Positions 9,707 to 55,016 of a DNA stretch of 64,000 bases are shown here, in pieces; position 1 is the stretch's first letter, and the number at the start of each line of letters is the position of its first letter. The stretch lies in NCBI GenBank assembly GCA_038143065.1, contig JAYQLI010000035.1, positions 672,001 to 736,000 of the forward strand, in the 5' to 3' direction. Position numbers and translations under genes: made by a program. The DNA comes from Rhodospirillales bacterium. GTDB lineage: Bacteria > Pseudomonadota > Alphaproteobacteria > Bin95. A model generated the notes under the pieces. The model was not told the DNA's origin and did not search any database. It worked only from the letters and a program-made list of their open reading frames with translations.

Positions 9707-9710
9707 CAAC

Positions 9711-11863: not shown

Positions 11864-12086
11864 TACGCTTTTGCAATCTTTTGGAATATTAACCCCAGAA
11901 ACGGCTTCTTTTTTGCCTTTAATTGTAGGGCACAAAAGTAAGTGATATCGCAAATCAAATTACAGCCTTAATCGACATTACTTTGACAAATAAGTTAGGC
12001 AACAATTTAAAAACAACATTCAAAAACTAACGACTTTTGGGTTTCAGCATTCGCTCAGGCATCGTAGGCTTTTAGCATGATGTCAC

Positions 12087-13664: not shown

Positions 13665-13666
13665 AA

Positions 13667-15031
13667 ATGAATGAGCTACCTAGTAATCCTCAAGATCTCC
13701 GGGTTCCAGATCCAGGCATTCGAGCATTATTTAAAACAGATAGCCGTTGGCAAGCATGGCTAGATGTCGAAGTGGCGCTGGCTAAAGCTCAAGCAAAGAT
13801 AGGGATGATTCCATCGAATGCCGCGGAAGAAATATCTAAAAAAGCAGATCTTTCACTTTTTGATAGACAAAAATTAGCTGATGGATTTCTCCGCAGCGGA
13901 CATACGCTAACTCCTTTGATTTGGGAGTTAGATCGGCTTTGTGAGGGTGATGCTGGTGGTTATGCGCATTGGGGTGCAACCACACAAAATATTGTGCAGA
14001 CAGGGGACCTTCTGATTCTTCGAAAAGCTGGCGCAATTTTTCGAAAGCAAATATCAGATCTTTTATTTGTAATGGCTGATCTTGCGGAGCATCATGCGGA
14101 GACAGCCATGGCTGCAAGGACACATGGTCAGCACGCAGTCCCCACAACATTTGGTGCAAAAGTTGCAGTTTGGCTTGATGAAATTTCACGGCACGGAATA
14201 CGGCTTTCAGAAGCGTCTCCCAGAGTATTTCGAGCAATGCTGGGAGGAGCAGCTGGAACTCTCTCATCCTTTGGAGCAGATGGCTTTAAGCTGCAGGAGG
14301 TATTTGCTGCAGAACTGCAAATGACAGCGATGGCTGTGCCAAGCCGCGCAGAAGGCGATCACTTATCTGAGTATGTTTTATTACTTGGCTTAATGGCTGC
14401 AACTACAGGAAAGATTGCTCGAGAAATTTATACCCTCCAAAAGCAAGAATTTGGAGAGTTGGAGGAACCAACGCCTGAAGGCTCTGTGGGATCAAGTACA
14501 ATGCCACAGAAAAGAAATCCATTTATGGCACAAGATATTGTTGCTCTATCTTCAGAAATAAGGATGCAAGTACCTTTAGCTCTTGAAGCCATGCAAACGG
14601 AGGACGAAGCGGATCGTGCGACTTCTTTACAAATACGCCAAGCTACTGAAAGAGCATGTGTTGCGACTGGGGATATGTTCGCTCGAATGAAAATAATTAT
14701 TTCCGATTTGAGTGTTAAACCAGAACGTATGAGGCAAAATTTAGATTTAACTGGCGGACTTATCATGGCTGAGCCCGTCATGTTGGCTCTTGGTAGCAGT
14801 ATTGGAAGACAGGAGGCTCATGACATTGTTTATGATGCAGCTCAAGCGGCTGCACTTGGCCAGAAAAGTTTTGCTGATTTATTGGCAGCCGACCAGAGAA
14901 TTTCAGCAAAACTCTCAAAAAATGACATCAAAAACTTACTGAATCCCTTAAGCTACGTTGGCTTGTCGCCAGAACTTGCGCGGCGCGCTGCATCATCCGC
15001 TAGAGACACCGCTGCCGAATTATTAAATTAA
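13667..15031 (+). CDS. Fumarase/aspartase superfamily lyase (adenylosuccinate lyase / PcaB-like)
   Basis: HWGATTQNI, ARTHGQHAVPTTFG and GSSTMPQKRNP signature. Confidence 0.88.
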   Translation: MNELPSNPQDLRVPDPGIRALFKTDSRWQAWLDVEVALAKAQAKIGMIPSNAAEEISKKADLSLFDRQKLADGFLRSGHTLTPLIWELDRLCEGDAGGYAHWGATTQNIVQTGDLLILRKAGAIFRKQISDLLFVMADLAEHHAETAMAARTHGQHAVPTTFGAKVAVWLDEISRHGIRLSEASPRVFRAMLGGAAGTLSSFGADGFKLQEVFAAELQMTAMAVPSRAEGDHLSEYVLLLGLMAATTGKIAREIYTLQKQEFGELEEPTPEGSVGSSTMPQKRNPFMAQDIVALSSEIRMQVPLALEAMQTEDEADRATSLQIRQATERACVATGDMFARMKIIISDLSVKPERMRQNLDLTGGLIMAEPVMLALGSSIGRQEAHDIVYDAAQAAALGQKSFADLLAADQRISAKLSKNDIKNLLNPLSYVGLSPELARRAASSARDTAAELLN

Positions 15032-15897: not shown

Positions 15898-18800
15898 TTA
15901 AACTCTTATCGAAGATTTAAATGCAGTTTGCATTATATAGACACCGACTTTTTTGAGATCATTACCAATAACTACAAGTGCAGGGACCACAAACAAAACT
16001 AAAAATGTTGCAACTAACAAACCAAAGACAATTGTTACGGCCATGGGAATAAGGAAACGTGCCTGCAAGCTCGTTTCAAAAATCATCGGTGTAAGACCAC
16101 CAATTGTAGTAAGTGAAGTTAAGAGGACTGCCCTTAGTCTATCCACACTGCCTTTAGCCGCTGCCGTTATAAGGTCCTCCCCATCAGCACGACGTCCATC
16201 AATTGTGATGATCAATACGATGGAATCATTCACAACAATCCCTGCAAGCCCTAAAAGGGCAATCATGGAGAGGATAGTCAAATCAAATCCCATAAACAGG
16301 TGCCCAAGTGTGGCACCAATAAAAACCAAAAGGTATGATAAGCATCACTGCTATTGGTCGACTAAAACTACCAAAGACCCAGCAGAGCACGATATACATC
16401 AAAACTAGACCAATAATTGCGCCAGTTTTCATATCCTTAAACGTACCCTGTTGCTCCTCTGCCTTACCCGCAAATCGGTAACTTACCCCATACTTTGCTG
16501 CTATTTCTGACAAACCATCTTTCTCAAGTGCGGCTAAAACATCATTACTGGTTGTTACTGCTTCGTCGATTTCGGCAGTAACAGCAATCCGCCGCACTCC
16601 GTCTTCACGCTTTATCTGAGAAAAACCAGCAGTTTCTCTAAATTCTACAATTTCACTTAAGAGGAATTTGTGTCCCGCTAGGAGAACGGAGATATAAATC
16701 CCGAAGAGGCACATCAGTCAGCGCTTCCTCATTAAGGCTAACTCTTACGGTCACCTCATCATCCCCGCGTGCAAATCTTTTTGCAATCGCACCTGAATAG
16801 GAATCCCTGACCTGACGGGCGACATTTTCCGTTGTGAAACCAAATGCCCGTCCCTTGCTGCTCAACACGAGCACAAGTTCAGGCTTGCCGTACGGCATAT
16901 CGTCTTCAATAGCACTGGTGCCAGAGTAATTAGAGAGCAACTGCCTAACTTCCTGAGCAGCACCTTTTAGAACTGCCGGATCACCCCCTGACAGCCTTAC
17001 GTCTACTTCACGTCCAGGAGGACCTCCCTGCGCAGGTGTTAGAGTCAGACTTTCAACACCAGCAATTGGTGGTAATGCCGCCTTCCATGCAGATAGAAAT
17101 TCATTGGTCCTAACAGATCTCCGGTCGGCTGGAATTAGTTCGAGAAAACAGAGCCTATCTCGTCACCAGTTGATCCGCCTCCTTGTTCACGTCCAACTGA
17201 TGCACCGACCTTTGCAAGGGTCTGACGAACGAGAGTTCCTTTGTTAAAACCCAATGCTTTCTCTGCTGTGTATGCCGCACTTTCAATAGCCCACACCGCT
17301 GTTTCGGTTTCACTACGCCCTCCGCCAGGAGCAAGTCGGACATTTGCGTAAGCCACATCTGCCTCAACAGATGGGAAGAAATTGAAAGCAACACGACCAC
17401 CAGCAACAAGACCAACTGATATAATCAAAGCCGAGACGGCAACAGCCATGGTTATGTATCGAAACTCGATAGCCTTAAAAACAGCATTTTCGAAATGACC
17501 GGAGCGAAAACGGTCAAACCAATTATTAAAAGAAGCACGAAAACCAGTTTTGCTAACAAAGGAGCTACTCAACGCACTTTTCATATGGCCTGGCAACGCC
17601 AAAAAACATTCAATCAAACTTGCTAGAAGAGCCGCAACAACAGCCATTGGAATGGCAGCAATTATAACCCCGATAAGGTCCCCTATTACAAAAAGCGGCA
17701 AAAAGGCTGCTACCGTTGTTAATGTTGAACTAACGACAGGGGCAGCCATTTTACGAGCGCCCTGCTCTGCTGCGTCTAGCGCCGATAAGCCTTTGCGTCT
17801 TAAGGCCTCTGCATGTTCACCGACAACGATTGCATCATCAACGACAATACCAAGTACAAGGATTAGACCAAACAGGCTTATCATGTTTACAGATTGCCCA
17901 GATAACCACATCACTGATAGAGCTGCCATAAGTGATGCGGGTATGCCAATCGCGACCCAAAATGCAACGCGGGCATTGAGGAATAGGAAAAGCACAAGCA
18001 CTACTAGCACGAGCCCACCCGCACCATTTTTCACTAGAAGCCAAATTCTTTCTTTTACTAAGTTGGACTCAACGCCGTATTTTTCGACCCGAAGTTCTGC
18101 GGGGAGAGTTGGCAAAGTCTTTTCGAGATAATTATCAAGGAGTGCAGCTGTCTCCAGACTATCCGCCGTCGTGGCACGCTGCACCAAAAGCACAATTGCA
18201 GGTTGGCCAAAATGCGATGCACTTACTTGATCTTTGTCATAAGACTCTCGAACTAAAGCAACATCAACAATGCGAACCTTGCCCCCTAAATCATTATTTT
18301 TCAGTTCAATAGAAGAAATTTCTTCTGCAGTCTCTGCCAGACCTAAACTGCGTATTTGACGAACACCTCCCGCTGTTTCTCCCGAAGGAACATCTTGAGA
18401 AGCTTTGAGTAATAGCGCTTGCGACGTCCCCCACTGTTAGGTCCAGTGCGCGCAGCCTGAACGGATCGACTTCTACAGAAATTTCCGGATCGCGCATTCC
18501 AGAGAATGAAACCCGGTCGATCCCGGCCTTCATCATTTCATCGCGCATGCGTTTTCCTAGGGTCCTCAGGGCTGCTTCTGAATAAGGACCAGAAATTGCG
18601 ATCCGTGCTATCGTGTCATAACGAACGATCCGCGCCACATCAGGCTGCTCACTGCCTTCAGGTAAAGTTGTTGCGCGGGCAACAGCAGCATCGACATTTG
18701 CAAAAGCAGTCTGCATGTCAGCGCCTTGTTGAAATTCTACTATGACAGAAGCTGCGCCCTCTCTCGCTGTAGAGCGCACCCGCTTAACATCGTCTAAAAA

Positions 18801-19069
18801 GCGAACCTCTCGCTCAATTGTTTGTACAATAGATAGATCGACATCATCCGCAGATGCTCCTTCCCAACCAATATTTACTGAGACGATATCAATCCCAAAG
18901 TCAGGAAAGAATTGAGTATTCATCCTCCATAAACCAGCCAATCCAGCAATTATCATGATAGCCATGACTAAATTAGCGGCTGTAGGATGACGAGCAAAAA
19001 GACTTATGAGCCCCCTCTTGGTGTTAAACCAACCAATTCCTCTGAACTGGAATTGTTGGGACTATTCAC
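15898..19069 (-). CDS. RND efflux permease, AcrB/AcrD/AcrF family (several frameshifts)
   Basis: FARHPTAANL, GIVVDDAIVVGE, GIVVNDSIV and RLRAVLLTSLTT across ORFs 18306..18965, 17135..18193, 16653..16940, 16283..16714 and 15898..16329. The start is approximate. Confidence 0.9.
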
Positions 19070-20301
19070 GGATCTGAACCTTTTAAACCTGGAGCTATTT
19101 CGGGAATGCGTTACAACAAGCCTACTGTCTTCAGCTATGTCTCCTGAAATAAGTGCATCAAAACGATCCAGGGTTAGCACTGAAATAGATACTTCTACCA
19201 AGCGCCCATTGTCGACGACATATACTCGTTCTGAGTCATAAACAGCACTCTCTGGAACTCGAAAAACATTTTCATAAGAAATATCTGGGGTGCGCGCTTC
19301 TACAAATGCACCAGGGCGCAAATCGTATATATTCTGGCCTCCACTGATCGGTGCATAAAGCCAAACACCACCCGAAGTGGCATCAAATTCTCCTTGAACA
19401 CGAGATAAAGTAGCATTGAGTTTGATTAGGGTTTCACCCGCTCGCCAGATAATTTCAGCAGGCCGCCCCTGAAACCCACCATTTACGGCAAGCCTTCCAA
19501 CTGAGCGTCGCTCATGTGGAAACGGGCCTCTAAACGCTCTCCATCAATCAATCTTGCTATCTTGTCAGAGCTACTAACACGTTTCCCAATCGCTGCAGAA
19601 ACATCAACTAAAATGCCATCAAATGGGGCAAGTAAACGCGTCTCTTCAAGATCACGTTTAGCTCTTTTCAATCGCACCTCCGCGCGCGTCACGCTAGCAG
19701 TAAGACGTGAAATCTGTGCTTTCAAACGAGCAATTGTCTCAAAGCGCACCACTCTATTTTGTCTGGAAGAAAGATAAGCAAAACGCGCGTCATCAACACT
19801 TTTCCCTGATACCACTCCATTGCCTAACAGACTTTTCTTCCGATCAAGGTCTATCTTGCGAAGTGTCTCTTGCTCTTTATCAAAAACGACAAGCTCCTGG
19901 TTGGCGGCAAGGTCCGCCTTAGCTTCTTCAAGTGCTGCATTTGCTTCTAAAACAGCAGCTTCTGCATCAACAACTTCTGTTTCGTATTTGAAGGGATCTA
20001 CTGCAACCAGTAATTCACCCTTTTTAACCCGTCCTCCAGCGTAGAAATTTGATCCAGTTTCGACGACACGGCCCTCAACTAATGGACGAAGATCAGAATC
20101 TCTTGACGAAGTAATTCGTCCAAAAAGTTTTAGGTTTGGTTGAAGATTAGTTCGCTTGATTGAGATAGTGTCCACCACCCATTCACGCTCTTCAGCAGGA
20201 TTAGACGCAGCCTCCGGTTTTGTGAGGACCAACAGAGCAAAAAGGCCCCCTGCGCCGCCAAGCAGCGCAAAAACAACAAGTAATTGGACGAGCTTCTTCA
20301 A
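19062..20301 (-). CDS. RND membrane fusion protein (frameshifts)
   Basis: N-terminal membrane anchor, VEGRV, coiled coil, LLAPFDG, RPGAFVEA and VPESAV. It lies directly upstream of the RND permease. Confidence 0.88.
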
Positions 20302-20501
20302 AAAATACTCCTCGGCCTAACCAAATCTGTGGTCTAGGCTCAATACGGCAATTCGATATGCCTGGGAAATTATAATTTCGCATCTACCAAGATGCAGAAT
20401 TCCAATCACCAACAATGATCATCTGCTTAGAAATCTCTGTTAGCATTGCTGCCCGTTAAAGATCCCTTGCTACATTGAGTTCTATCACTAAGAATTACGC
20501 A

Positions 20502-20834
20502 ATGAATTCAACATCCGATCATCAAAAACAACAATTTCTTAATTCTTCAGCTTTAGAAGTTGTAGTGGAATTACAAAAAGCGGAGTTAGATCGTCTCCTT
20601 GCGGAAAATAAACGGCTGCATCAACGGATAGATCAGTTACTTCAATTGCAAGAAAGAGAGCAGGTCCTGCGTCAGCAGCTGCAATCTGTTTTAGGAAACC
20701 CATCAAAAACGACTCAGCTCCCGAATACACTATCATATGGCAGCGAAGTTCAATCCTTACAGACACGATATGGAAGGTTGAAAGATGCCTTAGGTGTGCT
20801 GCTTGTAGCGCTAGAAAAACGTTCTAGAGGTTAA
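20502..20834 (+). CDS. Small coiled-coil hypothetical protein
   Basis: Heptad-like L/Q/E/R-rich ORF filling the gap between the MFP and Rieske genes. Confidence 0.6.
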   Translation: MNSTSDHQKQQFLNSSALEVVVELQKAELDRLLAENKRLHQRIDQLLQLQEREQVLRQQLQSVLGNPSKTTQLPNTLSYGSEVQSLQTRYGRLKDALGVLLVALEKRSRG

Positions 20835-21222
20835 CTATAACAAACTCACCCTCTGTGGTCACATCTACTGTTTCGACTTCAAGCTGCTGAGCGTCTCCCA
20901 CCTCAACATCGTAGGAATGAGTTTTCCAGCGATTTGGATCAAAACGAGACTTTCCAGTTCGGAGATCAAACTCCCACCCATGCCATGGACATCTAACAAT
21001 CTCACCCCCACGACTATAGCTATAGCAACCTGGTCGATCTGCTTCGACTAGACCAATAACAACACCTTCGGACAATAGCCCCCCCATATGTGGGCAGGCA
21101 TCACGCAGGCCAAAATATTCTCCAGCAACATTAAAAATTGCAATTTTACGCCCCTGAACCTCAACACTTAGTCGCGCACCCGGTGGTATATCCATTACCT
21201 TTGCGGCTATGTGTTTTGCCAT
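20824..21222 (-). CDS. Rieske [2Fe-2S] ferredoxin
   Basis: CPHMGG and CPWHGWEFDLRTG, with a long insert between the two ligand boxes. Confidence 0.93.
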   Translation of the reverse strand: MAKHIAAKVMDIPPGARLSVEVQGRKIAIFNVAGEYFGLRDACPHMGGLLSEGVVIGLVEADRPGCYSYSRGGEIVRCPWHGWEFDLRTGKSRFDPNRWKTHSYDVEVGDAQQLEVETVDVTTEGEFVIVNL

Positions 21223-21226
21223 GTGA

Positions 21227-22335
21227 TTACACCCTGTAGAGCGAACGGGCGTTGTCTATAAAGAAACTTTGTTTCTGTTCATCGGTAGCGCGAGGAAGGG
21301 GAATACGGGTTGGATCATCAAAATCCCAGTGCGGATAATCCGTTGCAAAAAGTAACTTTTCCCACCCAATCCACTGAATATATCTTTCAAATGGCCTCGC
21401 CGATCTGGTTCCTCAAATGGTTGCGTCGTATACCAGATATGATCTGCCATATATTCTGAGGGAGGGCGTTTAACGTGCAGCAACTCCTCTCTATTTTGGG
21501 CCCATATTCTATCTAAGCGCCATGAGAGTGCTGGCGCCCAGGCAAAACCCGCCTCTACTATTATCAATTTTAATTTAGGCCAACGCTCAAAGACGCCTTC
21601 CATAACCATTGATGTGACAAGAGACTGAGCGGACTGAGAATGTCCCACCATATCTTCGGTATAATAACTAGGCCAGCCACCCCCAGTTACGGGCGTACCA
21701 CCAAAACCAAAGGCATGAACGGCGAGTGGAAGATTAGCTTCCACACAGGCATTAAAAATTGGCCAATATCGTCTATTACCCAAAGGTTCAGAGGTTCTAA
21801 TCAACATAAACGCTTGTATAAAATTTGGGTCGCCTGCTCGGCGCTCAATTTCTTTTGCTGACAGAATAGCGTCTTCATAAGGCAAGCAAACTGAGCCTTT
21901 GAGACGTGCTTCTTTGGATGTCCATTCCGCGATCTGCCAATCATTTATGGCCTTGCAGTACGCAGCTGCAAAATCGGGGTTTTGCAGGCCTTGGCCCGAT
22001 TTGAGGGGATTTAAAACGCCTAATTCAATATTATAGCGATCCAGGTGATGTTTTCGCATAAATTCTAAGTCAGAACCTGGCTTCTCTCCATTAGGCCCAT
22101 AGGCGTCTCGCCTTGCGGCATCTGGCTGCCCTTTTGGATAAGCAGGTCCTGCTTGGTATGGCTGGCGCAGAAGCATCCCATAAGTTTGATAATGGTCACG
22201 CCAGCGCTTTTCCAAAAATGGAAAAATTTCTTTCTCAACTGATTTTGGGCTTGGATGAATATCGCAGTCTGCGATCACTAGCTTTTGATTTGCAGGCATC
22301 GTGGCCGATGCTTTGCCGATAGTTTCGACACTCAC
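21227..22335 (-). CDS. Amidohydrolase_2-fold protein, probable dinuclear oxygenase catalytic subunit (frameshift near 21380)
   Basis: ADCDIHP, VHAF, VEAGFAW and TTQP. The corrected C-terminus is [15 protein letters not shown]...NARSLYRV*. Confidence 0.88.
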
Positions 22336-23402
22336 GTTACGGCCTCCTTCAATCTAGGATAGGTCTTGAGTGGATTATCATAGCACATTTTATTCATTAG
22401 CGCCTCTGAAATGCCATTTGGGATGGCATTTGTACCTTCATAGTGCCAATGAGGGTAATCACTTGAAAAACGCAGCATCTCATCGCTATCAAGGTGATTA
22501 ATCAATTTTTCTAAATCTTCGGGTCTAGGTGGAGCATCTGATGGCTGAATAGTCAGTCGAAGATGGTCTTTAGCAATTTCTAGTGGGTGTCGGTCGACCC
22601 AAGGGGTCTCCATGCGCAAGCCACGCCAGAACTTGCCAAGCCTCCAAAGGTGTGAGGGCAGCCAAGCAAATCCAGATTCTAAAAACACCACCTTCAAATC
22701 AGGAAATTCAGCAAATACACCCTCGGTTATCAAGCTGGTAAGCGTAGTTTGAAATGCTTGAGACTGGGCAGCAGAATCTTCTGCATAGTATGTTGGCCAA
22801 CCTACCGATGTAACCGGATGTCGGTATGCACTTCCGGCATGAATCCCTATTGGCAGGCCACATCTTTCTGCAGCGCGGTAAATTGGCCAATAGCGCCGGC
22901 GCCCGAGAGGCATCTCATCCATAACCAGCATCAGGACCTGAACGAAACGGCTATCATTAGACATCCGCTCTATCTCAGCTGCAGCATAATCAGGGTTTTG
23001 CGGAGGAACAACTATCGAGGCCCGGAGGCGTTCATCCTTGTCTAACCATTCAGATACTATCCAATCATTTACGGCACGAGCAAACGCGTAAGCCATATCT
23101 TCAGTGTATAAAAGTTGCACTCCATAGAGGCAGTTACAAATAGCAAATTTTACTTGGAAGCCGTCCAATGCCTCTTTTTGCAATCGTCCCAAATCCTGGC
23201 CGGCTTTACCTGATTCCGGTTTCCAATCTGGTCGTGCTGTAACGGGTGCATTTTTAGGATAGCTGATAGAGTCCAGTTCATGAACACCTTGTTGCACAAC
23301 CATGTCACGCCAATGATCATCTAAATAAGGCAACAATGCCTTAAGGTTTGGCACAGCTGGATGAATATCACAGTCGATAGCACCGATAGGAGGATGAGGC
23401 AT
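22332..23402 (-). CDS. Amidohydrolase_2-fold protein, probable partner subunit
   Basis: IDCDIHP, IHAG, LESGFAW and SSDYPHWHYE. Its stop overlaps the next start by 4 nt. Confidence 0.88.
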   Translation of the reverse strand: MPHPPIGAIDCDIHPAVPNLKALLPYLDDHWRDMVVQQGVHELDSISYPKNAPVTARPDWKPESGKAGQDLGRLQKEALDGFQVKFAICNCLYGVQLLYTEDMAYAFARAVNDWIVSEWLDKDERLRASIVVPPQNPDYAAAEIERMSNDSRFVQVLMLVMDEMPLGRRRYWPIYRAAERCGLPIGIHAGSAYRHPVTSVGWPTYYAEDSAAQSQAFQTTLTSLITEGVFAEFPDLKVVFLESGFAWLPSHLWRLGKFWRGLRMETPWVDRHPLEIAKDHLRLTIQPSDAPPRPEDLEKLINHLDSDEMLRFSSDYPHWHYEGTNAIPNGISEALMNKMCYDNPLKTYPRLKEAVT

Positions 23403-23406
23403 TTTT

Positions 23407-24243
23407 TTAGTCCTCTTCTGGGCGAGAGCGCCATTCCTCGGCATCAAACGCAACATGTTCCCCAAAATGATGAATAGTGGTCTCATCAGGAAGTGTTAAT
23501 TTTGAGAACTGTGCATCGGCCGATGAAAGATGAACAACGCGAGACTTTGTCTGAAGCCATTTTGTTGCAGGTAGAAGTGTTGACTGCCGCTGAGTTACGT
23601 CCATCACATAATAATGATGCGGGATGACTACTTTAGGCTTCAAGTGCTCAATTATGCTGTCAATCATTTCAAATCCCATCACATGCTGGCTATCGTCAAC
23701 CGGCAGCAGAACGATGTCTATATCCCCAATCATTTCCCAAATATAATCAGGGGGGTTGTGTCGATTATCACCCCAATGAAGAAAGCGAAGACCACCCGTC
23801 TCAATAACGACTAACACATTATCCCAAGATCTAGGATTATCAGGCGGCTCAATGTTAACTCCATTGAAACGTTTATGAATTAACTTGAAATCGTATAAAG
23901 CTGCACTTGCGTCCGTAGCATGTTTATCGGCAATACCTTCAATTGAAAGGTCAAGAAAACTGTATCTGCCAATTGGCCTATCTAAAAGTACGTTTGCATC
24001 TAATCTATCAAGAGCGTCATGATCAAAATGCGCATGGGTTGAAACCCCTATATCAACACTTGTGAGTGGAATATCTTTAAAATACCAATCCCAGGTTCTA
24101 CTCGGATGATTACGCCAAGGGTCAATCATTACTGTCAGACCTTGCGGTGTTGTCAGTCTGAATGCACTCGATCCAAAATAAGACACTGTTACAGTACCAA
24201 AGTCTTCTGGTCGCCCAATCCCAGCCTGCTGTTTGAGCATCAT
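23407..24243 (-). CDS. Metallo-beta-lactamase-fold hydrolase
   Basis: MIDPW, STHAHFDH, LHWGD and VIPHHY. Confidence 0.85.
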   Translation of the reverse strand: MMLKQQAGIGRPEDFGTVTVSYFGSSAFRLTTPQGLTVMIDPWRNHPSRTWDWYFKDIPLTSVDIGVSTHAHFDHDALDRLDANVLLDRPIGRYSFLDLSIEGIADKHATDASAALYDFKLIHKRFNGVNIEPPDNPRSWDNVLVVIETGGLRFLHWGDNRHNPPDYIWEMIGDIDIVLLPVDDSQHVMGFEMIDSIIEHLKPKVVIPHHYYVMDVTQRQSTLLPATKWLQTKSRVVHLSSADAQFSKLTLPDETTIHHFGEHVAFDAEEWRSRPEED

Positions 24244-24304
24244 TGAATTATGATTGCTTGTTCGAAGCCAAGATGTGAGACCTGGAATAGAGCTTACGCA
24301 TGAA

Positions 24305-24995
24305 TTAGTCCTCAAAAATAGCAACTGCTCGGATAGGACTTGCAGTACCCCCGGATCTTCAATGGAAAACCCACAAATCGAAACCGCCCTTCACCGACTA
24401 ACCTTTCTAAATTCCAAAGACACTCAATATGCGTTATTCCTCGCTCTCCGCACGCAAGATGCGCTTTATAATTCGCAGCACCCTCAGGAGCTGGGCTGAT
24501 TGCTTCCACCCCAAATTGACGGATATTTTTGTCTGCAAGCCAATGGACTGAGTTGACATGAAGCCCTGGAAAATCATGCTGATATCCGGGAGTTCCCCAA
24601 AGTCGGGCATTTACTCCCATATGCAGGAGCACGGTATCACCCTCTAGGATTGGCGCTCCAGCAGCTTCCAATGCGGCCTCCATCTCTTCCACTGTTATCT
24701 CATGCCGGAGTTCAACATGAGATAAATCCAGACAAATACCGCCTGTATAAAAATTTTCTAAGGGCATTTCGTCTATAGAGGCCGCTCCAGGCCTAGGGTC
24801 AAAGTGGACGGGTGCATCAATGTGGGTTCCGGCATGATCAGACATAGAAATCGACATCGCCTTCGAAGAAAATTTAACACCACCCGCTTCCTTAACCTCT
24901 TCATGATCATTCCATGTTGTCATTACCACTGGAGGATGCGCAGGATGGGCGGGAGTTCGATGGTATATTTCTCGTGAAAGATCGATAAAACGCAT
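24305..24995 (-). CDS. Cyclase / kynurenine formamidase (KynB-like) family metallohydrolase (frameshift near 24350)
   Basis: FIDLS, HAGTHIDAPVH and HIECLWNL. The corrected end is FPLKIRGGTASPIRAVAIFED*. Confidence 0.88.
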
Positions 24996-25092
24996 ACAGT
25001 ACTCCATTAAATTCAGAATAAGATTATTGTCATAAAGCTTACACAAATAAGATCTAAGCAAGGATCTTCATAATAGTGAAGAGTGAACGAAA

Positions 25093-25674
25093 ATGTCTGG
25101 CCTAGCGCCATTAGTTTTAATTGTGGGGCCAAGTGGGGCCGGAAAAGACACCCTTTTAGAAGGAGCTAGTCAGGTCCTAGCACCGACCGGACAATTTTAC
25201 TTTTCGGGACGGAAAATAACGCGCCCCGTTTCCGCGGAAGGCGAACAACACACTGAAATAAGTCGAACAGAATTCAATCAAAAGGAAGCTGAGGGAAAAT
25301 TTCTTCTGTCCTGGCGAGCCCATGGTAATTGCTACGGCGTACCGAACACACCATCAGAGGAAATGAGACAAATTGGCAAAACGGTGGTGGCAAGCGTTTC
25401 CCGCTCCGTAATAGATGATGCTAGCGCAAGGCATCAGCCTGTCCATGTAATTTACGTTACAGCACCAAAATCACAGCTTGCTAAACGATTAGCTCTCAGA
25501 GGGCGGGAAACGGAGGCAGAAATATTGGAAAGGCTTAACCGCGCAGGTGAGCTTGAGGTAAGCGGTAAGAACGTAACAATAATCACAAATGACCAAGATA
25601 TAGAAACAGGTATCTCCAAGATGATAACTGCTCTACAAATTGCCTCAATTTTGGAATGGGAACCGGCGGAGTAA
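25093..25674 (+). CDS. phnN: Ribose 1,5-bisphosphate phosphokinase PhnN
   Basis: VGPSGAGKDTL, RKITRP, WRAHGNCYG, SVSR and LALRGRE, next to the phn operon. Confidence 0.9.
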   Translation: MSGLAPLVLIVGPSGAGKDTLLEGASQVLAPTGQFYFSGRKITRPVSAEGEQHTEISRTEFNQKEAEGKFLLSWRAHGNCYGVPNTPSEEMRQIGKTVVASVSRSVIDDASARHQPVHVIYVTAPKSQLAKRLALRGRETEAEILERLNRAGELEVSGKNVTIITNDQDIETGISKMITALQIASILEWEPAE

Positions 25675-26340
25675 TTTAAATGGCGTACCAAGGCCTGGTT
25701 GCTCATATAAGGCCAATCCGGATATTTCTGTTGGTCCAATTACCCCAGCTGTTTGTGCAGCGTCCGATAAAGCTTCCTTTAGCCTGGATCTAAGAGCAAC
25801 TGTTTTCACAGCGTTTGTTAATGTCATATGAAAACGAAAATCCTCTTTAACGTATGGGTAACCCCAGTTTTGAAGATTTTCTTCCTGTCTGGAAGTTAGG
25901 CTGACCGACCGTCGCTTCCTTAGCTCCTCGTCTGTTAGAGGCGAACGATATAGGTCAAAAAACTCTACCGCCTCAGATGCAAGGCTATCCATTTCTGCTG
26001 AGGCATGGCCAAGCGCAAACGCGATAAAGTTTCCAATTTCTGATGGACTAGCCAAGGAACACACAAACGATTTTCTAGCTGATACAAACTCGTCCAAAGA
26101 CTTTATCAAATCCCCCAAATCAAAAGGATTGGATAATCGAAATGGCGGTTTAATTGTTGCATGGAAACCATAAAGACTTGGAGAGCTTGTAAGCTCGTCA
26201 ATATCGACATCTTCGAGGCCAATTATCGATGGTCGCCTTAGTTCTTCACCTGTTTCAACATCCCGCCCCAACCAAGAATTACCAAAGCTCCACAGAGCGG
26301 ATCCACGCGGTGGCGCGAAATAGATTGCATACCGCTTCAT
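25645..26340 (-). CDS. DUF1045 2H-phosphoesterase of phosphonate operons
   Basis: RYAIYFAP, YGFHATIKPPF, WGYPYV and FRFHMTLT. ATGA overlap with phnM. Confidence 0.9.
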   Translation of the reverse strand: MKRYAIYFAPPRGSALWSFGNSWLGRDVETGEELRRPSIIGLEDVDIDELTSSPSLYGFHATIKPPFRLSNPFDLGDLIKSLDEFVSARKSFVCSLASPSEIGNFIAFALGHASAEMDSLASEAVEFFDLYRSPLTDEELRKRRSVSLTSRQEENLQNWGYPYVKEDFRFHMTLTNAVKTVALRSRLKEALSDAAQTAGVIGPTEISGLALYEQPGLGTPFKLLRRFPFQN

Positions 26341-27470
26341 GCGGCTTGCACTCCAGACACCCATGTTCCTCTTACGATTGCAGATCTATCTATTTTGCGC
26401 ACACGCACAAGATCCGCACGTTTTCCAACTACAATCTCTCCACGATCAAAGTGACCAAGCATTTCTGCGGGATTTTTAGAAACAGTAGCCACAGCCTGTG
26501 GTAATTTCATTACGTTCAGATCATCCAGCTTAAATGCAGCCTGAATGAGACTAATTGGTGCATAATCTGATGAGAGAGCATCCAGCAATCCAGCCGATGC
26601 CAAATCTATTGCTGAAACATTACCGGAGTGAGAGCCACCACGAGCCACATTCGGCCCTCCCATAACAGTCCTCATACCAGCTTTTTTAGCAGCCTCTGCG
26701 GCTTCCATTGTAGTTGGAAATTCAGAAATCAGAATATTATCGCTAATTGCTTCAAGAACATGATCAGGAGTGGTGTCATCATGGCTAGCAACTGGGCCCC
26801 GACCTTGCCATAGATCTAGAATCTTTCTCCGGTTTGCATTTACATTTTTGCTCGCAGACGCAATACGCGAGGAAACATATTCTTCAAATTCCTTGTCCGG
26901 CATATTTTCATTTTTATAAACCTTAAACGATTTCAAATCGCGCCATTGCCGCTGCCCTGGCGTATGATCCATGAGAGAAATTAATCTCACTACGGGGTCA
27001 TTTGCATAGGGTTTAAATAGCTCTGGAGCGATGTCATCAGCAATTTCACACCTCAAGTGCACATAATGATCGGCGCGAAACAATCCTTCTTGCTTGGCTT
27101 GCGCCACAGCATCCATGACTGTCTTTAGAAGGGCTCGGCGGTAATTCCTATCCAAATACTCTCCAACCGCGATAGCATCATAAACAGTTGTTACCCCGGC
27201 GGCCGTCATTTGCGCATCATGAGCAAGGATAGCTGCCAAGGGTGATGGCCAGAGGATACCAGGTCTAGGTACCATATGCTTTTCGACATTGTCCGTATGA
27301 ATTTCTATGCATCCGGGAAGTAAAAAATCTTTACCAAGATCTTGGGAACCAGCGGGGATTTTATCACCCTCCCAAATTTCTTGAATTTTGCCACCTACTA
27401 CTGAAATTCCACCATGAAACACAGCATCTGCTGTCACAACATGTGCATTTGCCAATACGATATCAGACAT
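26337..27470 (-). CDS. phnM: Alpha-D-ribose 1-methylphosphonate 5-triphosphate diphosphatase
   Basis: EIHTDNVE, HLRCE, MDHTPGQRQ, ASHDD, EFPTT, RGGSHSGN and LSSDY. Confidence 0.96.
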   Translation of the reverse strand: MSDIVLANAHVVTADAVFHGGISVVGGKIQEIWEGDKIPAGSQDLGKDFLLPGCIEIHTDNVEKHMVPRPGILWPSPLAAILAHDAQMTAAGVTTVYDAIAVGEYLDRNYRRALLKTVMDAVAQAKQEGLFRADHYVHLRCEIADDIAPELFKPYANDPVVRLISLMDHTPGQRQWRDLKSFKVYKNENMPDKEFEEYVSSRIASASKNVNANRRKILDLWQGRGPVASHDDTTPDHVLEAISDNILISEFPTTMEAAEAAKKAGMRTVMGGPNVARGGSHSGNVSAIDLASAGLLDALSSDYAPISLIQAAFKLDDLNVMKLPQAVATVSKNPAEMLGHFDRGEIVVGKRADLVRVRKIDRSAIVRGTWVSGVQAA

Positions 27471-28177
27471 CAGGCTGCAGCCTTAAATTGAGAAACATCA
27501 AATAATCGGTCAGCAAAACGGTCACGCGCTATCTCATCATGGCAAATGGCCACTACAGCTGCCCCTCGTTTTTTTGCTTCCAAGATGAGCTCGATAGCTG
27601 CTTCCCTATTTGCAGCATCAAGCGAGGCTGTAGGCTCATCCAACAGTAAAATCGAATAAGGCCGCACAAGCCCCATTGCGATATTAACCCGCTGTTGCTC
27701 ACCTCCGGAAAAGGTTGCGGGCGGAACATTCCAAAGATGTTCTGGAAGATTGAGCCGTCTTAAAAGTCCTGCTGCAGCTTCAATAGCTTCCTCAGAAGAA
27801 CTACCAGCAGCAATTGCCACTTCGGCGACTAGATCAATCGATGAAATTCTTGGGATAACCCGCAGGAACTGACTGACATAACCGATAGTTTCCCGACGAA
27901 TTTCAAGCTTTGTCCTTGCCTCGACAGAAGCAATATCTACCCAATTTTCATGATGATTGATTAGGATTTTCCCTGAAGATGGAAGATAGTTTGCATAAAG
28001 ACTTCTAAGAAGCGTTGATTTACCAGATCCTGAACTGCCAACTAACGCAACACATTCACCTGATGCCACATCGAAAGAGACGTCTTGAAAGACGGGCAGT
28101 TCAATCCCCCCTCGTCCATGCAAAGTAAAAGTCTTATGCAGATTTTGAACCCGAAGCTTTGAAAGGTTTTGAGTCAT
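27470..28177 (-). CDS. phnL: C-P lyase system ABC-type protein PhnL
   Basis: KTFTLH, GSSGSGKST, GYVSQFLRVIPR and PATFSGGEQQRVNIA. Confidence 0.95.
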   Translation of the reverse strand: MTQNLSKLRVQNLHKTFTLHGRGGIELPVFQDVSFDVASGECVALVGSSGSGKSTLLRSLYANYLPSSGKILINHHENWVDIASVEARTKLEIRRETIGYVSQFLRVIPRISSIDLVAEVAIAAGSSSEEAIEAAAGLLRRLNLPEHLWNVPPATFSGGEQQRVNIAMGLVRPYSILLLDEPTASLDAANREAAIELILEAKKRGAAVVAICHDEIARDRFADRLFDVSQFKAAA

Positions 28178-28946
28178 GCTTGTAAAACCGATGAGACAAG
28201 AAGTTGACTGTAGGGATGCTGAGGGTCATCAAGAACTTGATCAGTTAGACCTGATTCTACGACACGCCCCTGACGCATAACCATCAAACGATCTGATAAT
28301 AGACGCACAACCGCCAGGTCGTGAGTTACAACCACCGCCGCAACGCCTAAATCACGGACCAAACCCCGCAAGAGGTCCAGCAGCCTTGCCTGAACTGTGA
28401 CATCCAAGCCCCCAGTGGGCTCATCCATAAATACCAGTCTTGGCTTAGATACGAGGATACGAGCAATTTGCACCCTCTGCTGCATACCTCCTGAAAAGGT
28501 ACGCGGTAAATCGTCAATACGGCCTGACGGTATTTCAACTCGAGTTAGCCAATCTAGGGATTCCCCACGTATTTCGGAGTAGTTCCGAGCGCCAACTGCC
28601 ATTAGGCGCTCTCCAACATTTCCACCAGCTGACACGTTCATCCGAAGTCCATCGCGGGGGTTTTGCCTAACTATGCCCCAATCTGTCCGCATAAGAAGTC
28701 TTCGTTCAGGCTCTGATAGGCTAAAAACATCGCGAAGCCCCTGTCCACCCGCATCAAAGCGAACAGAGCCTTGTGAAGGTTCAATCATTCCAGAAAGGCA
28801 ACCTAGCAACGTTGATTTTCCCGATCCAGATTCACCAACAACTCCTAAAACCCTCCTGGGTAGAGACGAAAGGAAACGTCTTCACACCCTAGCTGGCCTC
28901 CTGCATACGAATGACCGACGGACTCAGCTTCAAGTAATGCGTTCAT
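28174..28946 (-). CDS. phnK: C-P lyase system ABC-type protein PhnK (frameshift near 28850)
   Basis: QNPRDGLRM, FSGGMQQR, DEPTGGLDVTVQARLLD and LDDPQHPYSQLLVSS. The N-terminus is in ORF 28845..29078. Confidence 0.94.
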
Positions 28947-28950
28947 TAAT

Positions 28951-29858
28951 TTAGCCCTCCGTCGGAACAAAACCCATATCGGCTGCATCAGAAGCTCGCG
29001 ACCCTGTATGCCCAGCAGCACGACGTTCTCGGCAATGATCACTGTCAGAACACACGAACATATGATCACCTTTGTCATCTAAAATTACCTCATCAAGAAA
29101 TACCTCCTCAGCTCCACAAAGAGCACAAGGTTTATCAAAACGCTGAGGCTTAAAGGGATGATCATCGAAGTCGAGACTACGAACACGTGTGTAAGGAGGG
29201 ATTGCGTAAATTCGCTTCTCTCTTCCCGCTCCAAAAAGCTGTAATGCAGGCATCATCGCCATTTTTGGGTTATCGAATTTGGGAATGGGAGATGGCGACA
29301 TTATGTGTCGAGCATTGACCTCAACCGGGTAGTCATAGGTCGTAATAATCTCGCCATGCCGTGAGATATCTTCGTAAAGCTTTACGTGCATCAGGCCATA
29401 TTCTGAATAAGCATGTAACTTTCTAGTTTCAACTTCTCGAGGCTCAAGTTTCCATAGAGGCTCAGGTTGAGGAACTTGATAAACAAGGATTTTGTTTTTC
29501 CGTTAACTGCTTTTCAGGTATGCGATGTTGAGTTTGTATAAGAGTTGCTTTGTTTGTTTCTTCAGTAGTTTGAACGCCCGCAACACGTCGAAAGAAGCGC
29601 CTAATTGAAACAGCATTAGTTGTATCATCGGCCCCTTGGTCGATAACTTTCAACGTATCGTCACTACCAATTATTGAGGCTGTAATCTGAATGCCGCCCG
29701 TTCCCCAGCCATACGCCATTGGCATCTCACGGCCTCCAAAGGAACCTTGATAACCAGGAACGGCGATCGCCTTTAAAAGCGTCCGCCTTATCATTCGCTT
29801 AGTCTGCTCATCCAGATAGGCGAAATTGTAGGTACCATCTACAGAGTGGAATGCTCAT
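28951..29858 (-). CDS. phnJ: C-P lyase radical SAM subunit PhnJ (frameshifts)
   Basis: YNFAYLDEQTKRMIRR, GWGTGG, KVIDQGADDTTNAV, SPIPKFDNPK, and the cysteine motif CALCG...FVCSDSDHC. Confidence 0.95.
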
Positions 29859-29862
29859 GAAT

Positions 29863-30957
29863 TCATTCAGCTACCTCCTTATCGTGAGTGGTCAACACAT
29901 CCTCACGGAGACCACGGAGTAGAGAAAGCTCAGATTGGAAATCTACATAGTGTGGAAGCTTCAAATGACTTACGAAGCCTGCAGCCTCGACATTGTCGCT
30001 ATGAGCAAGGACAAATTCCTCATCTTGAGGAGGATGAACTCGGTCCTCACCCAGCTCGCTAGCTTTGAGCGCACGGTCAACAAGAGCCATGGCCATCGTT
30101 TTTCGCTCCGATTGACCAAAAGCAAGGCCATACCCTCGAGTAAACATGGGTTGAATATCTTTTGTCCCAGTAAACTGGTTGATCATCTGACATTCAGTTA
30201 CTTCGATTTCACCAATTGAAATTGTAAAGCCGAGCTCTGGTGGCGTGAATTGAACCTCAACAAAACCCATCCTTATCTCGCCAACAAAAGGATGGTTCCT
30301 GCCATATCCTCTCTGCGTGGCGTATCCCAAAGCTAATACAAACCCCTCGTCACCGCGGAATAAGTTTTGTAGTCTCTGATCACGGTTAGCGGGAAATGAC
30401 ATTGGTTGCCGGCCAAGATCAAAAGGCTCAGCCTCAATCTCTTCTCTATTTTCAGCCTGCATGAGGCCCTCTGCGCCTAATATGTCAGTCACGCGAGGCA
30501 TGGTTTGCTCAGTAGCAGTTGCCTCTGGCGCTGATGTAGCATCAGCACTCTTTTTAACGAGATCAAAATCAAGCAGTCGATGAGTATAATCGTAAGTTGG
30601 ACCTAAAATCTGACCACCTGGTATATCCTTAAATGCCGCTGAAATACGCCGACGGATAATCATTTTAGATGTATCTAGTGGCTCAGCAGCACCGAAACGC
30701 GGCAGCGTTGTACGAAATGCTCGGAGAAGGAAAATAGCTTCTACCATGTCCCCTTGAGCTTGCTTGATCGCCAAGGACGCAAGGTCTGGATCATATAAAG
30801 ATCCCTCAGTCATAACCCTATCGACAGCACGTCCAAGTTGGTTTCGCACTTGATCAGTGCCGAGCTCAGGAACAGCAGTATCACCCCTTCTTTCCTCAGC
30901 TATTAGCTCGTGAGTAGCCTCTATGGCTGACTCACCACCTTTGGTCGCAACATACAT
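29863..30957 (-). CDS. phnI: C-P lyase subunit PhnI
   Basis: MYVATKGGE, EAIFLLRAFRTTL, PGGQILGPTYDYTHRLL and GFVSHLKLPHYVDFQSEL. Confidence 0.96.
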   Translation of the reverse strand: MYVATKGGESAIEATHELIAEERRGDTAVPELGTDQVRNQLGRAVDRVMTEGSLYDPDLASLAIKQAQGDMVEAIFLLRAFRTTLPRFGAAEPLDTSKMIIRRRISAAFKDIPGGQILGPTYDYTHRLLDFDLVKKSADATSAPEATATEQTMPRVTDILGAEGLMQAENREEIEAEPFDLGRQPMSFPANRDQRLQNLFRGDEGFVLALGYATQRGYGRNHPFVGEIRMGFVEVQFTPPELGFTISIGEIEVTECQMINQFTGTKDIQPMFTRGYGLAFGQSERKTMAMALVDRALKASELGEDRVHPPQDEEFVLAHSDNVEAAGFVSHLKLPHYVDFQSELSLLRGLREDVLTTHDKEVAE

Positions 30958-30961
30958 CGTC

Positions 30962-31550
30962 TCAGACCTCCAGAGGTTGCGCAGAAACCCCGCGCGGTAG
31001 CGCTAGCACTGCATTGTCTGCAAAAAAGAAAACATCAAAGCCCAGTGGGTAGAGAGAATTATTGTCCGCCCAAATCCCCCAAAACTTATTGTTCCCAATG
31101 TCTGGGGCGATTCTGTTGCTCAACTTTATTCCTGGACCAGAAGCATCTATCGGCGCACCATCTGTAAGGCTTTCACACGCAATTAAAAGTGTCGCTGACC
31201 TATCCGGATACTGGTCAGTGCCAATTTTGAATTGCTGGAATGGCGCTGAAGCAACATCAAAAATAATCGCGAAGTCAGCGTCTTCCGGCCTAGGCGATAT
31301 CCGACAGCCCGTAAGGAAATTTCAGGTAATGGAGGGCGTCAGGATCTTCACGGTCAAGCCAGACTGCAACATCACTGTCCAAAAGAGTGAGGCACCCAGC
31401 CGCAAGAGATGATGACCATCCTTTTGGATGCCCCTGCGGCCTTACAACTTCCAGTACCCTCCCGGGAAAAGAGATCGCCTCCATTATAGAGCGAAAAGCT
31501 AACTGCGTTCCAAAAACTGGTTCGTCAAATCCAGCAGCTAAAGATACCAT
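30962..31550 (-). CDS. phnH: C-P lyase subunit PhnH (frameshift near 31315)
   Basis: FRSIMEAISFPG and LTLLD. The second frame gives GTDQYPDRSATL, GPGI, YPLGFD and LALPR. Confidence 0.9.
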
Positions 31551-31552
31551 CG

Positions 31553-32027
31553 CTAACTCTCCGCCCTAACCATGGTGAAAAAGTCAACTTTGGTAGCGCC
31601 AGCCTTCCGACGAGCCTTTAAATGACGTGCACTTTCTTCATCTTTGAGCGGATTAATAATGGATCTTAAGATCTCTTCCCTCCTGTGCGTTTGTAATAAA
31701 GCATCACAAATAGCGGCGGATTTAGCTTTTTCGATATCCCGACCCTGGACATATGCATGTCCAACAATATTAGGCGATGAGTTAAGAGTTACTGCGCAGC
31801 GAGTAACGCTCATTTCGCCAACGGAGAAATACTTGGCCGGTACCACCTGCACGCCCACGCGTCATCACCGCTCCAACCTCTGGTTGCCTCAACCAATTAA
31901 ACTCAGGCAATTCGCCCAAGCTTTTGATTAATTTGGCCAACGATGAAGCAGATGCTCTTGTGAGCACACCCATCCATTCCGCTCTTGAGGCGTTTGCGGA
32001 TTGATCTGGATCAAACTGTTCGTCCAT
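31553..32027 (-). CDS. phnG: C-P lyase subunit PhnG (frameshift near 31830)
   Basis: RAEWMGVL, PEVGAVMTRGRAGGTG, GEMSVTRC, GHAYVQGRD and ATKVDFFTMVR. Confidence 0.93.
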
Positions 32028-32042
32028 GGAACACCTTCAAAT

Positions 32043-32062
32043 TTGTCTAGACATCTAGATAA
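32043..32062. promoter_or_regulatory. Putative PhnF (GntR/HutC-type) operator
   Basis: Perfect palindrome TGTCTAGACA (32044-32053) overlapping ATCTAGAT (32053-32060) in the divergent phnG/phnF gap. It fits the HutC-subfamily GTnTAnAC pattern. Confidence 0.65.
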
Positions 32063-32116
32063 CTTGAAGTTAACTACATCTACGTAGTCTGTAAACCGGA
32101 AAAAGAAGACAGTTTT

Positions 32117-32859
32117 ATGACAATTAAAGAGCAAAGCACTTCCACACTTGAACGGGGAAGTGGTGAAGCATTGTGGAAACAGATTGCTAGTGAGTTAGAA
32201 AACGACATCAAAACTGATGCTTATTCAAAAATTGGTCAGCGACTACCAACAGAACAGGTCTTAACTGCTCGGTTTAACGTCAACCGTCATACAGTTAGGC
32301 GGGCCATTCAATCTTTAGTGGAAGATGGCCTCGTCCGCACAGAACAAGGTCGCGGCGTATTCGTAAACACAGAAGTCGTTGAATACCCACTTGGAAGACG
32401 TGTCAGATTTAGCGAAAGCCTATCTGCGCTGCAAAAATCACCAAAAGGAAAAATACTCTCAATCATCAAATGCAAAGCCCCAATAGATGCGCTGGAAGCC
32501 CTGGGTTTAAAAATGAACAGAGTTTGTGGAGGGTAGACAGATTGGGATTTAGTGATGAAACAGCAATAGCTCTGTCTTCGCATTATTTCTGCGCTGAACG
32601 CTTTCCTAAACTTAAGGCTGTTTTCAACGAAACAAACTCAATAACAAGTGCTCTCAATGCTTTGGGTGTGGCGGACTATGAAAGGAGAGAAACACGTATA
32701 TTGGCACGACCAGCTACTGCCGAAGAAACCCGTTTTCTAGAATTACCAAGAGGCAGACCAGTCCTTATAACAGAGGGCATAAACATCGATACCGAAGGAG
32801 CCGTAATCGAATATAGCATTGCACGTTTTGCGGCAGACCGGGTGCAACTTGTTACATAA
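32117..32859 (+). CDS. phnF: Phosphonate metabolism regulator PhnF, GntR-UTRA (frameshift near 32515)
   Basis: LPTEQVLTARFNVNRHTVRRA, RTEQGRGVFV, RVRFS, GVADYERRETRI and ARFAADRVQL. Confidence 0.93.

Positions 32860-52882: not shown

Positions 52883-55016
<2,134 letters not shown>

Follow-up and report, generated by a model that had tools for sequence, protein, structure and literature searches.

What kind of enzyme system is encoded by five tightly packed genes on the minus strand of an alphaproteobacterial contig? The genes occupy positions 20824-24995 of a 64,000-nt stretch of DNA from a Rhodospirillales bacterium (GenBank assembly GCA_038143065.1, contig JAYQLI010000035.1, positions 672,001 to 736,000), hereafter the window. 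They are co-oriented and succeed one another in the order cyclase-family hydrolase, MBL-fold hydrolase, A, B and Rieske ferredoxin, where A is an AibH1-like subunit, B is an AibH2-like subunit and A-B-Rieske forms what we call the triad. A previous interpretation made from the letters alone (the sequence-only reading) had likened the locus to a heteromeric AibH1H2-type oxygenase accompanied by two metallohydrolases. Our analysis suggests that A, B and the Rieske protein quite probably represent the oxygenase and the ferredoxin of a multicomponent monooxygenase of the AibH1H2 type, one of the amidohydrolase-related dinuclear oxygenases (AROs), and that the breaks interrupting several of the reading frames are most likely assembly errors. 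The assignment to the AibH1H2 type is itself well supported by sequence comparison. The five genes are as follows.

24305-24995, minus strand: cyclase-family (PF04199) metal hydrolase gene (Pfam 1.1e-33), frame broken at the G5 run 24352-24348
23407-24301, minus strand: MBL-fold hydrolase gene (PF13483 Lactamase_B_3; Pfam 7.4e-23), frame change after codon 6
22332-23402, minus strand: A, AibH1-like auxiliary PF04909 (Amidohydro_2) barrel, intact, 356 aa (Pfam 1.5e-37)
21227-22335, minus strand: B, AibH2-like catalytic PF04909 (Amidohydro_2) barrel, frame-broken (Pfam 1.8e-34)
20824-21222, minus strand: small Rieske [2Fe-2S] ferredoxin, AibG-like, 132 aa (Pfam Rieske PF00355, 9.1e-15)

We compared both barrel proteins to the solved structures of the PDB and observed that each paralogue is closest to its own counterpart. 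The best match of A is AibH1 (6m1w_A; E 2.9e-89, 303 bits), followed by 8sm7 (251 bits), SfbO (222 bits) and AibH2 (215 bits), and the scores drop to 43 bits for PtmU3 and to 38 bits or less for decarboxylases. B was searched as two separate parts, before and after its frame break. Its best match is AibH2 (6m1w_B; E 5.9e-70, 239.5 bits), followed by 8sm7 (209.5 bits), SfbO (188 bits) and AibH1 (155 bits), with PtmU3 at 55 bits and decarboxylases at 35 bits or less. The 44-residue piece located beyond the break (21230-21361) matched the C-termini of AROs when searched alone (8sm9, 6e-10; 8sm7, 5e-7; SfbO, 1.5e-5; AibH2, 5e-4). A function of A or B as decarboxylase or hydratase was ruled out by these scores, with AROs far above decarboxylases, which reach E 1e-7 at best. 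Indeed, neither protein groups with decarboxylases or hydratases in the PDB searches, which covered AibH1, AibH2 and PtmU3, the three proteins that the sequence-only reading had singled out for comparison.

The metal ligands of the characterized enzyme have been described as D25, H27, H211, E265, D337 and H340 in AibH2 and as D24, H26, H201, E255 and D328 in AibH1 (Hibi 2021, section 8), and D342 of AibH2 has been assigned to the second sphere (Powell 2023). We set the start of A from an alignment of 18 sequences. Both subunits present the D-x-H element, as D-I-H (D12/H14 in A; D25/H27 in B); the DCDIH string and the ExG element reported for both barrels by the sequence-only reading are likewise present, the latter as E-S-G in A and E-A-G in B. 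In the alignments, residues D12, H14, H188, E242 and D315 of A correspond, in this order, to D24, H26, H201, E255 and D328 of AibH1, so that all five ligands of the mononuclear site are kept. Similarly, D25, H27, H207 and E261 of B, together with the D, H and D of its DYPHWD motif, correspond to D25, H27, H211, E265, D337, H340 and D342 of AibH2. B therefore keeps six of the six dinuclear-site ligands plus the equivalent of second-sphere D342, the C-terminal ones lying beyond the frame break. In AibH2, the loop 336-343 is found at the AibH1 interface, where D342 is bonded to K282 of AibH1 (PMC12141560). K257 of A aligns with this lysine and does not vary among the 18 A-type sequences aligned.

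AROs are defined in section 7 of Liu 2026 by D-x-H plus D-x-P-H-x-[D/E], and the criterion applied here places the C-terminal motif some 200 residues or more from the N-terminus. Only B carries D-x-P-H-x-D, correctly placed but read only after a one-base frame change in this assembly. A ends with SDYPHWHYE in its translation, as previously noted; the motif DYPHWH does not match the ARO C-terminal motif, its final D/E being absent, and AibH1 (DYPHKH) presents the same lack. For genome annotation, this means that the auxiliary subunit slips past the published ARO motif filter. As given in Liu 2026, manganese use is predicted where gamma1 is hydrophobic, gamma2 hydrophilic and gamma4 aromatic, and an aromatic gamma5 residue sits at the ferredoxin interface. 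In B, gamma1, gamma4 and gamma5 are occupied by Ile, Trp and Phe, respectively, and these residues fit the low-potential, Mn-using class, which is thus its predicted metal class.

The third member of the triad presents C43-x-H45 and C78-x-x-H81 in its translation and is closest to solved dioxygenase ferredoxins such as BphF (3.6e-11). This dedicated Rieske gene stands beside the oxygenase genes, 4 nt after B. The aib genes are arranged in the order aibH1-aibH2-aibG-aibF (Hibi 2021, Table 1), and the first three positions are reproduced here. The best match of each subunit, the two ligand sets and the order aibH1-aibH2-aibG all agree with the AibH1H2-type interpretation of the sequence-only reading.

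We then measured the gene spacing along the frames used by close relatives. The cyclase stop (24307-24305) is separated from the MBL ATG (24301) by 3 nt, the MBL stop (23409-23407) from the A ATG (23402) by 4 nt and the B stop (21229-21227) from the Rieske ATG (21222) by 4 nt, and the GTG start of B shares 22335-22332 with the stop of A (4-nt overlap). The gaps of 4 nt or 4-nt overlap previously proposed among the last four genes are recovered once the relatives' frames are followed, and the five co-oriented genes were found where they had been placed and in the same orientation. The cyclase gene starts with the ATG at 24995, preceded by GGAG, and the GC-content is flat across the region (0.455-0.457). 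Upstream lies one further feature.

24996-25092, no strand assigned: divergent intergenic region of 97 nt between the cyclase start and phnN, presumed to be the promoter region of the cluster

A single and weak sigma-70-like match was found at 25099-25070 on the minus strand. The promoter and terminator scan returned counts that were not above those of shuffled sequences (in the intergenic region, 6 matches found relative to 8.5 +/- 3.3 expected). No Rfam match was detected in 20200-25800 at E up to 1, and this region therefore offers no riboswitch to indicate a ligand. The hydrolase genes are probably co-transcribed with A, since they are packed against it with spacers of 3-4 nt.

We further analyzed the conservation of the triad. 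Among 8,000 scored candidates, 5,304 relatives of A were identified at E up to 1e-20; the best of these are 98%, 88% and 78-81% identical to A and the rest 72% or lower. A scan of species-representative genomes with A matched at least 604 stretches, at least 595 of them encoding a relative, and the best 80 of the at least 595 stretches, with A relatives 52-70% identical, were used as related loci. All 80 are alphaproteobacterial (Bradyrhizobium, Acetobacteraceae, Rhodopila and Bosea, among others). B comes after A on the same strand in 72 of the 80 loci, and in 47 of 80 a Rieske gene comes next. Nearly all A-type frames (80 of 83) end with D-[YF]-P-H-x-[QH], distributed as DYPHWQ (68), DYPHWH (6), DYPHHQ (3), DYPHYQ (2) and DFPHWQ (1). 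Two others present no motif and one reads DYPHWD (locus L021, where A and B run together). The motif DYPHWD was found in 68 of 80 B-type pieces, the other 12 being split or cut pieces without the motif. The pairing of A with B and the motif counts in the 80 loci indicate that the degenerate partner and the catalytic subunit constitute a stable architecture. Several tandem A-B pairs were also observed in some relatives (three in L002 at 4192-14396; two in L055 at 7305-12180, with a Rieske gene in between), which suggests that the A-B family has diversified by duplication.

The surroundings of the triad are variable. Clustering of the neighbours in the 80 loci revealed no shared catabolic gene; the neighbours include a Liv-type ABC transporter (L052), a TRAP/TAXI transporter (L009), solute-binding proteins, EamA and CinA, and the Bradyrhizobium loci present an ABC exporter with HlyD and a tricarballylate-like set. 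Using as tblastn query the reductase adjacent to the triad in L029 (rather than AibF), we detected a reductase match in four of the 80 loci. These genes, listed below, represent a candidate for the missing third component.

L029 13726-14949: BphA4-type ferredoxin reductase (Pyr_redox_2 + Reductase_C) beside A-B(-Rieske)
L010 13275-14381: BphA4-type ferredoxin reductase (same domains) beside A-B(-Rieske)
L069 12681-13799: BphA4-type ferredoxin reductase (same domains) beside A-B(-Rieske)
L077 9045-7915: BphA4-type ferredoxin reductase (same domains) beside A-B(-Rieske)

These elements can be combined into a working model in which we infer the heteromer, the metal use and the O2 chemistry from the biochemistry of AibH1H2 and SfbO, the co-transcription of the genes being inferred as well. 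B would be the catalytic subunit, its TIM barrel holding a dinuclear Mn/Fe (or Fe2) site. A would be its auxiliary paralogue, in which a mononuclear site is buried, and by analogy with AibH1 it would keep the C-terminal metal loop of B in position inside a heterotetramer. Electrons supplied by a reductase encoded elsewhere would reach the dinuclear site one by one through the Rieske protein. Once reduced, this site would bind O2 and hydroxylate a small polar metabolite by inserting one oxygen atom into one of its C-H bonds.

Beyond the triad, two sets of genes flank the cluster. An RND efflux pump is encoded immediately downstream of the Rieske gene (15898-20301, minus strand), with a truncated HlyD-type membrane-fusion gene (19483-20301) and an AcrB gene cut into at least four pieces. 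Between the pump and the triad, a 119-aa open reading frame (ORF) on the plus strand (20475-20834) constitutes a candidate gene; neither Pfam nor NCBIfam matches it, its abundance of Leu, Gln, Glu and Arg gives it a coiled-coil-like look, and it is convergent with the Rieske gene, whose 3' end it overlaps by 11 nt. On the other side, a C-P lyase phosphonate cluster adjoins the five genes (25093-32859). It comprises phnN (plus strand, above its NCBIfam cut-off), a DUF1045 protein, phnM, phnL, phnK (with its N-terminus missing), phnI, a phnJ gene in two pieces and a GntR/UTRA regulator in two pieces.

The state of the reading frames raises a further question. Three of the five genes (cyclase, MBL and B) are frame-broken in this assembly, by 1-2 nt, and the sequence-only reading had passed through all three breaks without mention. 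Reading through frame breaks in this way can mask an out-of-frame catalytic motif. The cyclase is 98% identical to its relative P0241 (230 aa) except for its last 14 residues, which are replaced; the G5 run 24352-24348 is two bases short relative to the relatives' reading. The MBL protein is 97% identical to P0121 (297 aa). Its frame changes after codon 6, with an extra base at about 24285-24281, such that the six-residue start of P0121 lies in another frame than the rest of the window gene, and most of the gene remains open in an ORF that begins with TTG (23407-24324). In B, one base is missing at the G-run/A-run 21363-21357, which places residues 1-324 and the last 44 residues in different frames. 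The open frame that starts at 22335 runs to 21256 with a tail unrelated to the relatives, and DYPHWD is readable only after a one-base shift at the break. Because of this break, the PF04909 match of the B ORF spans only model positions 2-223 of 289. The ten-residue C-terminal string that the sequence-only reading attributed to B does exist in the DNA but falls outside the reading frame of B. Likewise, the second-site carboxylate is present by alignment but is encoded out of frame in the assembly. All three breaks are found in or beside short homopolymer runs, the out-of-frame segments are still identical or near-identical to the relatives, and the operon presents neither nonsense codons nor larger deletions.

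Several observations weigh against a functional AibH1H2-type monooxygenase at this locus. As assembled, the B gene does not yield the three C-terminal residues of the metal site, and the enzyme would consequently be dead if this break were real. An in-frame TAA in another gene of the window (3881-5107, described below) is not explicable by homopolymer miscounting and the AcrB gene located downstream is highly fragmented, so that real gene decay has to be considered. The metal prediction for B rests on two of the three published criteria, gamma2 being unmapped. No reductase gene was found in the 64-kb window by tblastn with the L029 query, in agreement with the absence previously noted. The neighbours of the triad differ between the 80 loci and give no hint of the substrate. 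Finally, tblastn around the A relatives detected an MBL relative in none of the 80 loci and a cyclase relative in one (L047; 28% identity, about 3.8 kb upstream).

The alternative that best survives is that the breaks are real and that the five genes represent a pseudo-operon, inactivated not long ago in a gene-losing genome, from which no enzyme is made. We regard this as the less likely state of affairs, although one that retains substantial weight. In its favor, the three breaks occur within 4.2 kb, the RND pump encoded directly downstream is broken into at least four pieces, and splits also affect phnJ and the phn regulator. The second ARO-like gene of the window, with its in-frame TAA, points in the same direction. 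This gene (3881-5107, minus strand) belongs to PF04909 and carries motifs of the ARO type (D-A-H towards the N-terminal end, DWPHFD towards the C-terminal end); the TAA lies at 4429-4427 and an upstream ORF at 5144-5524 (minus strand). No Rieske gene adjoins it, and searches with its N-terminal part returned nothing from the PDB at E up to 1e-3 and nothing from NCBIfam.

However, broken genes are not confined to this part of the window. Based on Pfam coordinates, the genes cut into consecutive pieces include, besides AcrB, phnJ and the phn regulator, an aminotransferase gene and the gltB, gltD and tgt genes, and several domains are truncated.

10813-11863: split aminotransferase gene, 2 pieces
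44015-48605: split gltB, 3 pieces
48598-49942: split gltD, 2 pieces
53905-55016: split tgt, 2 pieces

Frame breaks affect roughly a third of the window genes scanned, at a similar density in housekeeping and accessory genes, and a uniform technical error fits this pattern better than selective decay. The proteins of the operon are 97-98% identical to intact relatives, including their out-of-frame segments, and no transposase turned up among the ORFs scanned. Moreover, the match to A or B is split between two frames in seven of the 80 related loci (L002, L005, L006, L013, L021, L059 and L066). A run of four or more identical bases was found in nine of ten junction zones of the other split genes, but the window contains on average one such run every 60 nt or so, and this check is therefore non-discriminating. 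Assembly error is favored because housekeeping genes are split likewise, the out-of-frame segments remain identical or near-identical to those of relatives, nonsense codons and deletions are lacking in the operon, and similar splits recur in the related loci. These results suggest that the three breaks most likely arose in assembly; were they real, the cluster would be a very recent pseudo-operon.

If the monooxygenase assignment is retained, what is the role of the two upstream hydrolases? The closest solved relatives of the cyclase are distant (8f9x, 4e-12; isatin hydrolase, 8e-11; KynB, 5e-6) and the protein scores 57.2 bits against the NCBIfam arylformamidase model TIGR03035, whose cut-off is 223. 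An orthology to KynB or arylformamidase was rejected, the resemblance being that of the superfamily only and far below this cut-off. The solved relatives of the MBL protein are distant as well (TM0207, 1e-12; UPF0173), and its sole NCBIfam match is PRK00685 "metal-dependent hydrolase" (44 bits, for a cut-off of 144). We ruled out PhnP as its identity, with no match to a PhnP model in NCBIfam. In the ESM Atlas, the MBL protein and the cyclase relative P0241 fall into generic "MBL fold" and "cyclase" clusters only, and a tblastn search of a plasmid collection with the MBL protein returned two records of 23-26% identity with no useful context. The metal-binding motifs of both hydrolases, His/Asp-rich in the case of the cyclase, are invariant in the alignments.

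The possibility, raised by the sequence-only reading, that the cyclase and MBL genes are conserved neighbours of the triad is not supported by the counts of zero and one among the 80 loci. These counts imply that the triad works without the hydrolases in most lineages, and the attachment of the hydrolases appears confined to the close relatives of the window. Among the closest metagenomic ones, relatives of A (81%), MBL (65%) and cyclase (85%) share a longest-contig size of 942,930 bp, and relatives of A and MBL share longest-contig sizes of 1,028,483 bp and 16,249 bp; such sizes do not imply adjacency. The shared sizes are the only sign that, in the nearest clade, the hydrolases may accompany the triad.

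The five genes might be read, as the sequence-only reading proposed, as one dedicated pathway in which the ARO would hydroxylate a small molecule and the hydrolases would open or deacylate the product or its precursor (a cyclic amide, lactone or formamide). The spacers of 3-4 nt and the 4-nt overlap suggest translational coupling, and the shared contig sizes and the invariant metal-binding motifs are consistent with such a pathway. Nevertheless, the scarcity of both hydrolases around the A relatives argues against it, their families are widespread by themselves (1,860 matches for MBL and 1,664 for cyclase at E up to 1e-10), an identical longest-contig size is no proof of adjacency, and neither protein reaches a curated NCBIfam cut-off. 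We consider this pathway possible but doubtful.

A more ambitious version is that, in this uncultured Rhodospirillales-like lineage, an AibH1H2-type Mn/Fe hydroxylase and two metallohydrolases joined in one transcription unit constitute a new catabolic route. Hydroxylation beside a heteroatom would destabilize a cyclic amide, a lactam or an N-alkyl compound, which the hydrolases would then dismantle, and the substrate could be of the aminoalkylphosphonate type given the C-P lyase genes next door. On this version, moreover, the conserved pair of degenerate and catalytic subunits found in hundreds of alphaproteobacterial species would represent a major unassayed family of hydroxylases for small polar metabolites. 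We put all of this forward as speculation with a small chance of being correct.

It is also conceivable that the cluster serves phosphonate use beside the C-P lyase genes by oxidizing or hydrolyzing an aminoalkylphosphonate or a similar molecule. Across the 97 nt, phnN is oriented away from the cluster, with the phn operon next. In addition, 2-aminoethylphosphonate perturbs the Mn/Fe electron paramagnetic resonance signal of SfbO (Liu 2024), and an ARO in a phosphonate biosynthetic cluster is mentioned in section 14 of Liu 2026. However, tblastn detected relatives of phnN, the DUF1045 protein and phnM in none of the 80 related loci, the MBL protein lacks a PhnP match, and adjacency in a single genome is weak evidence. 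A role in phosphonate use thus appears highly improbable.

Finally, A and B could be PF04909 enzymes of the usual non-redox kind (decarboxylase, hydratase or lactonase) with an unrelated Rieske gene. This idea can practically be dismissed: non-redox enzymes are what PF04909 is best known for and they do appear as weak matches (E 1e-8 to 1e-5), but AROs score 150-300 bits relative to 38 or less for decarboxylases, the motifs D-x-H and D-x-P-H-x-D are reportedly absent from characterized non-redox members (Liu 2026, section 7), and the pair is succeeded by a Rieske gene in 47 of 80 loci.

The AibH1H2-type monooxygenase remains our preferred interpretation. To our knowledge, AROs are among the few enzymes that hydroxylate unactivated C-H bonds with manganese, and only a handful have known substrates. 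The relatives encoded in at least 595 stretches include cultivable Bradyrhizobium strains and therefore offer a tractable genetic route to the substrate.

How does this cluster compare to known systems? The sequence-only reading considered it the best candidate for an undescribed catabolic system in the window, but the class has been published between 2023 and 2026. Powell 2023 reports 555 AibH2-like candidates, 90% with a small Rieske protein and 40% with permeases, and infers a role in the catabolism of small molecules not yet known; Liu 2024 lists 3,307 candidates based on Rieske adjacency, and Liu 2026 gives about 17,000 AROs. A full-text literature search on the class name or on PF04909 with Rieske found only these three studies, supplementary lists being outside the search.

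The likeness is weakest to the diiron, high-potential AROs PtmU3 and DitZ, with which the cluster shares a PF04909 barrel with a dinuclear site (predicted here). Their matches are weak (40-55 bits), and sections 11-12 of Liu 2026 describe them as having a hydrophilic gamma1 and usually no Rieske partner. Regarding KynB and isatin hydrolase (PF04199), the cyclase-family gene shares their fold, and its metal motif is invariant in its relatives. The homomeric enzymes SfbO (8SM6) and B6JH23 of Afipia carboxidovorans (8SM7) are closer: the fold, the ligand set and the adjacent Rieske gene are shared (188-251 bits), as is the low-potential signature of a hydrophobic gamma1 with aromatic gamma4 and gamma5. 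However, SfbO and B6JH23 are single-subunit homotetramers, whereas here a degenerate partner is conserved beside the catalytic subunit.

The closest system is AibH1H2 with AibG and AibF of Rhodococcus wratislaviensis (PDB 6M1W, 8FUL-8FUO). Both present adjacent PF04909 paralogues, auxiliary then catalytic, followed by a small Rieske protein, and the likeness extends to the best match of each subunit, all of the metal ligands, the interface lysine and an auxiliary subunit without the final D/E. In contrast, the identity of A to AibH1 is only about 42%, the cluster has no aibF reductase gene and two metallohydrolase genes upstream instead, and its host is an alphaproteobacterium rather than an actinobacterium. 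The catabolic genes of the aib locus encode dehydrogenases, a serine hydroxymethyltransferase-like decarboxylase, an alanine dehydrogenase and a permease (Hibi 2021, Table 1). Flanking genes of the aibD1, aibE, aibC, aibA and aibT types are absent beside our cluster, where the neighbours are the cyclase, the MBL protein, the phn genes and the RND pump. The substrate is very probably not 2-aminoisobutyrate (Aib). The cluster opens no new class of system and adds to the known one a well-defined heteromeric AibH1H2-like representative.

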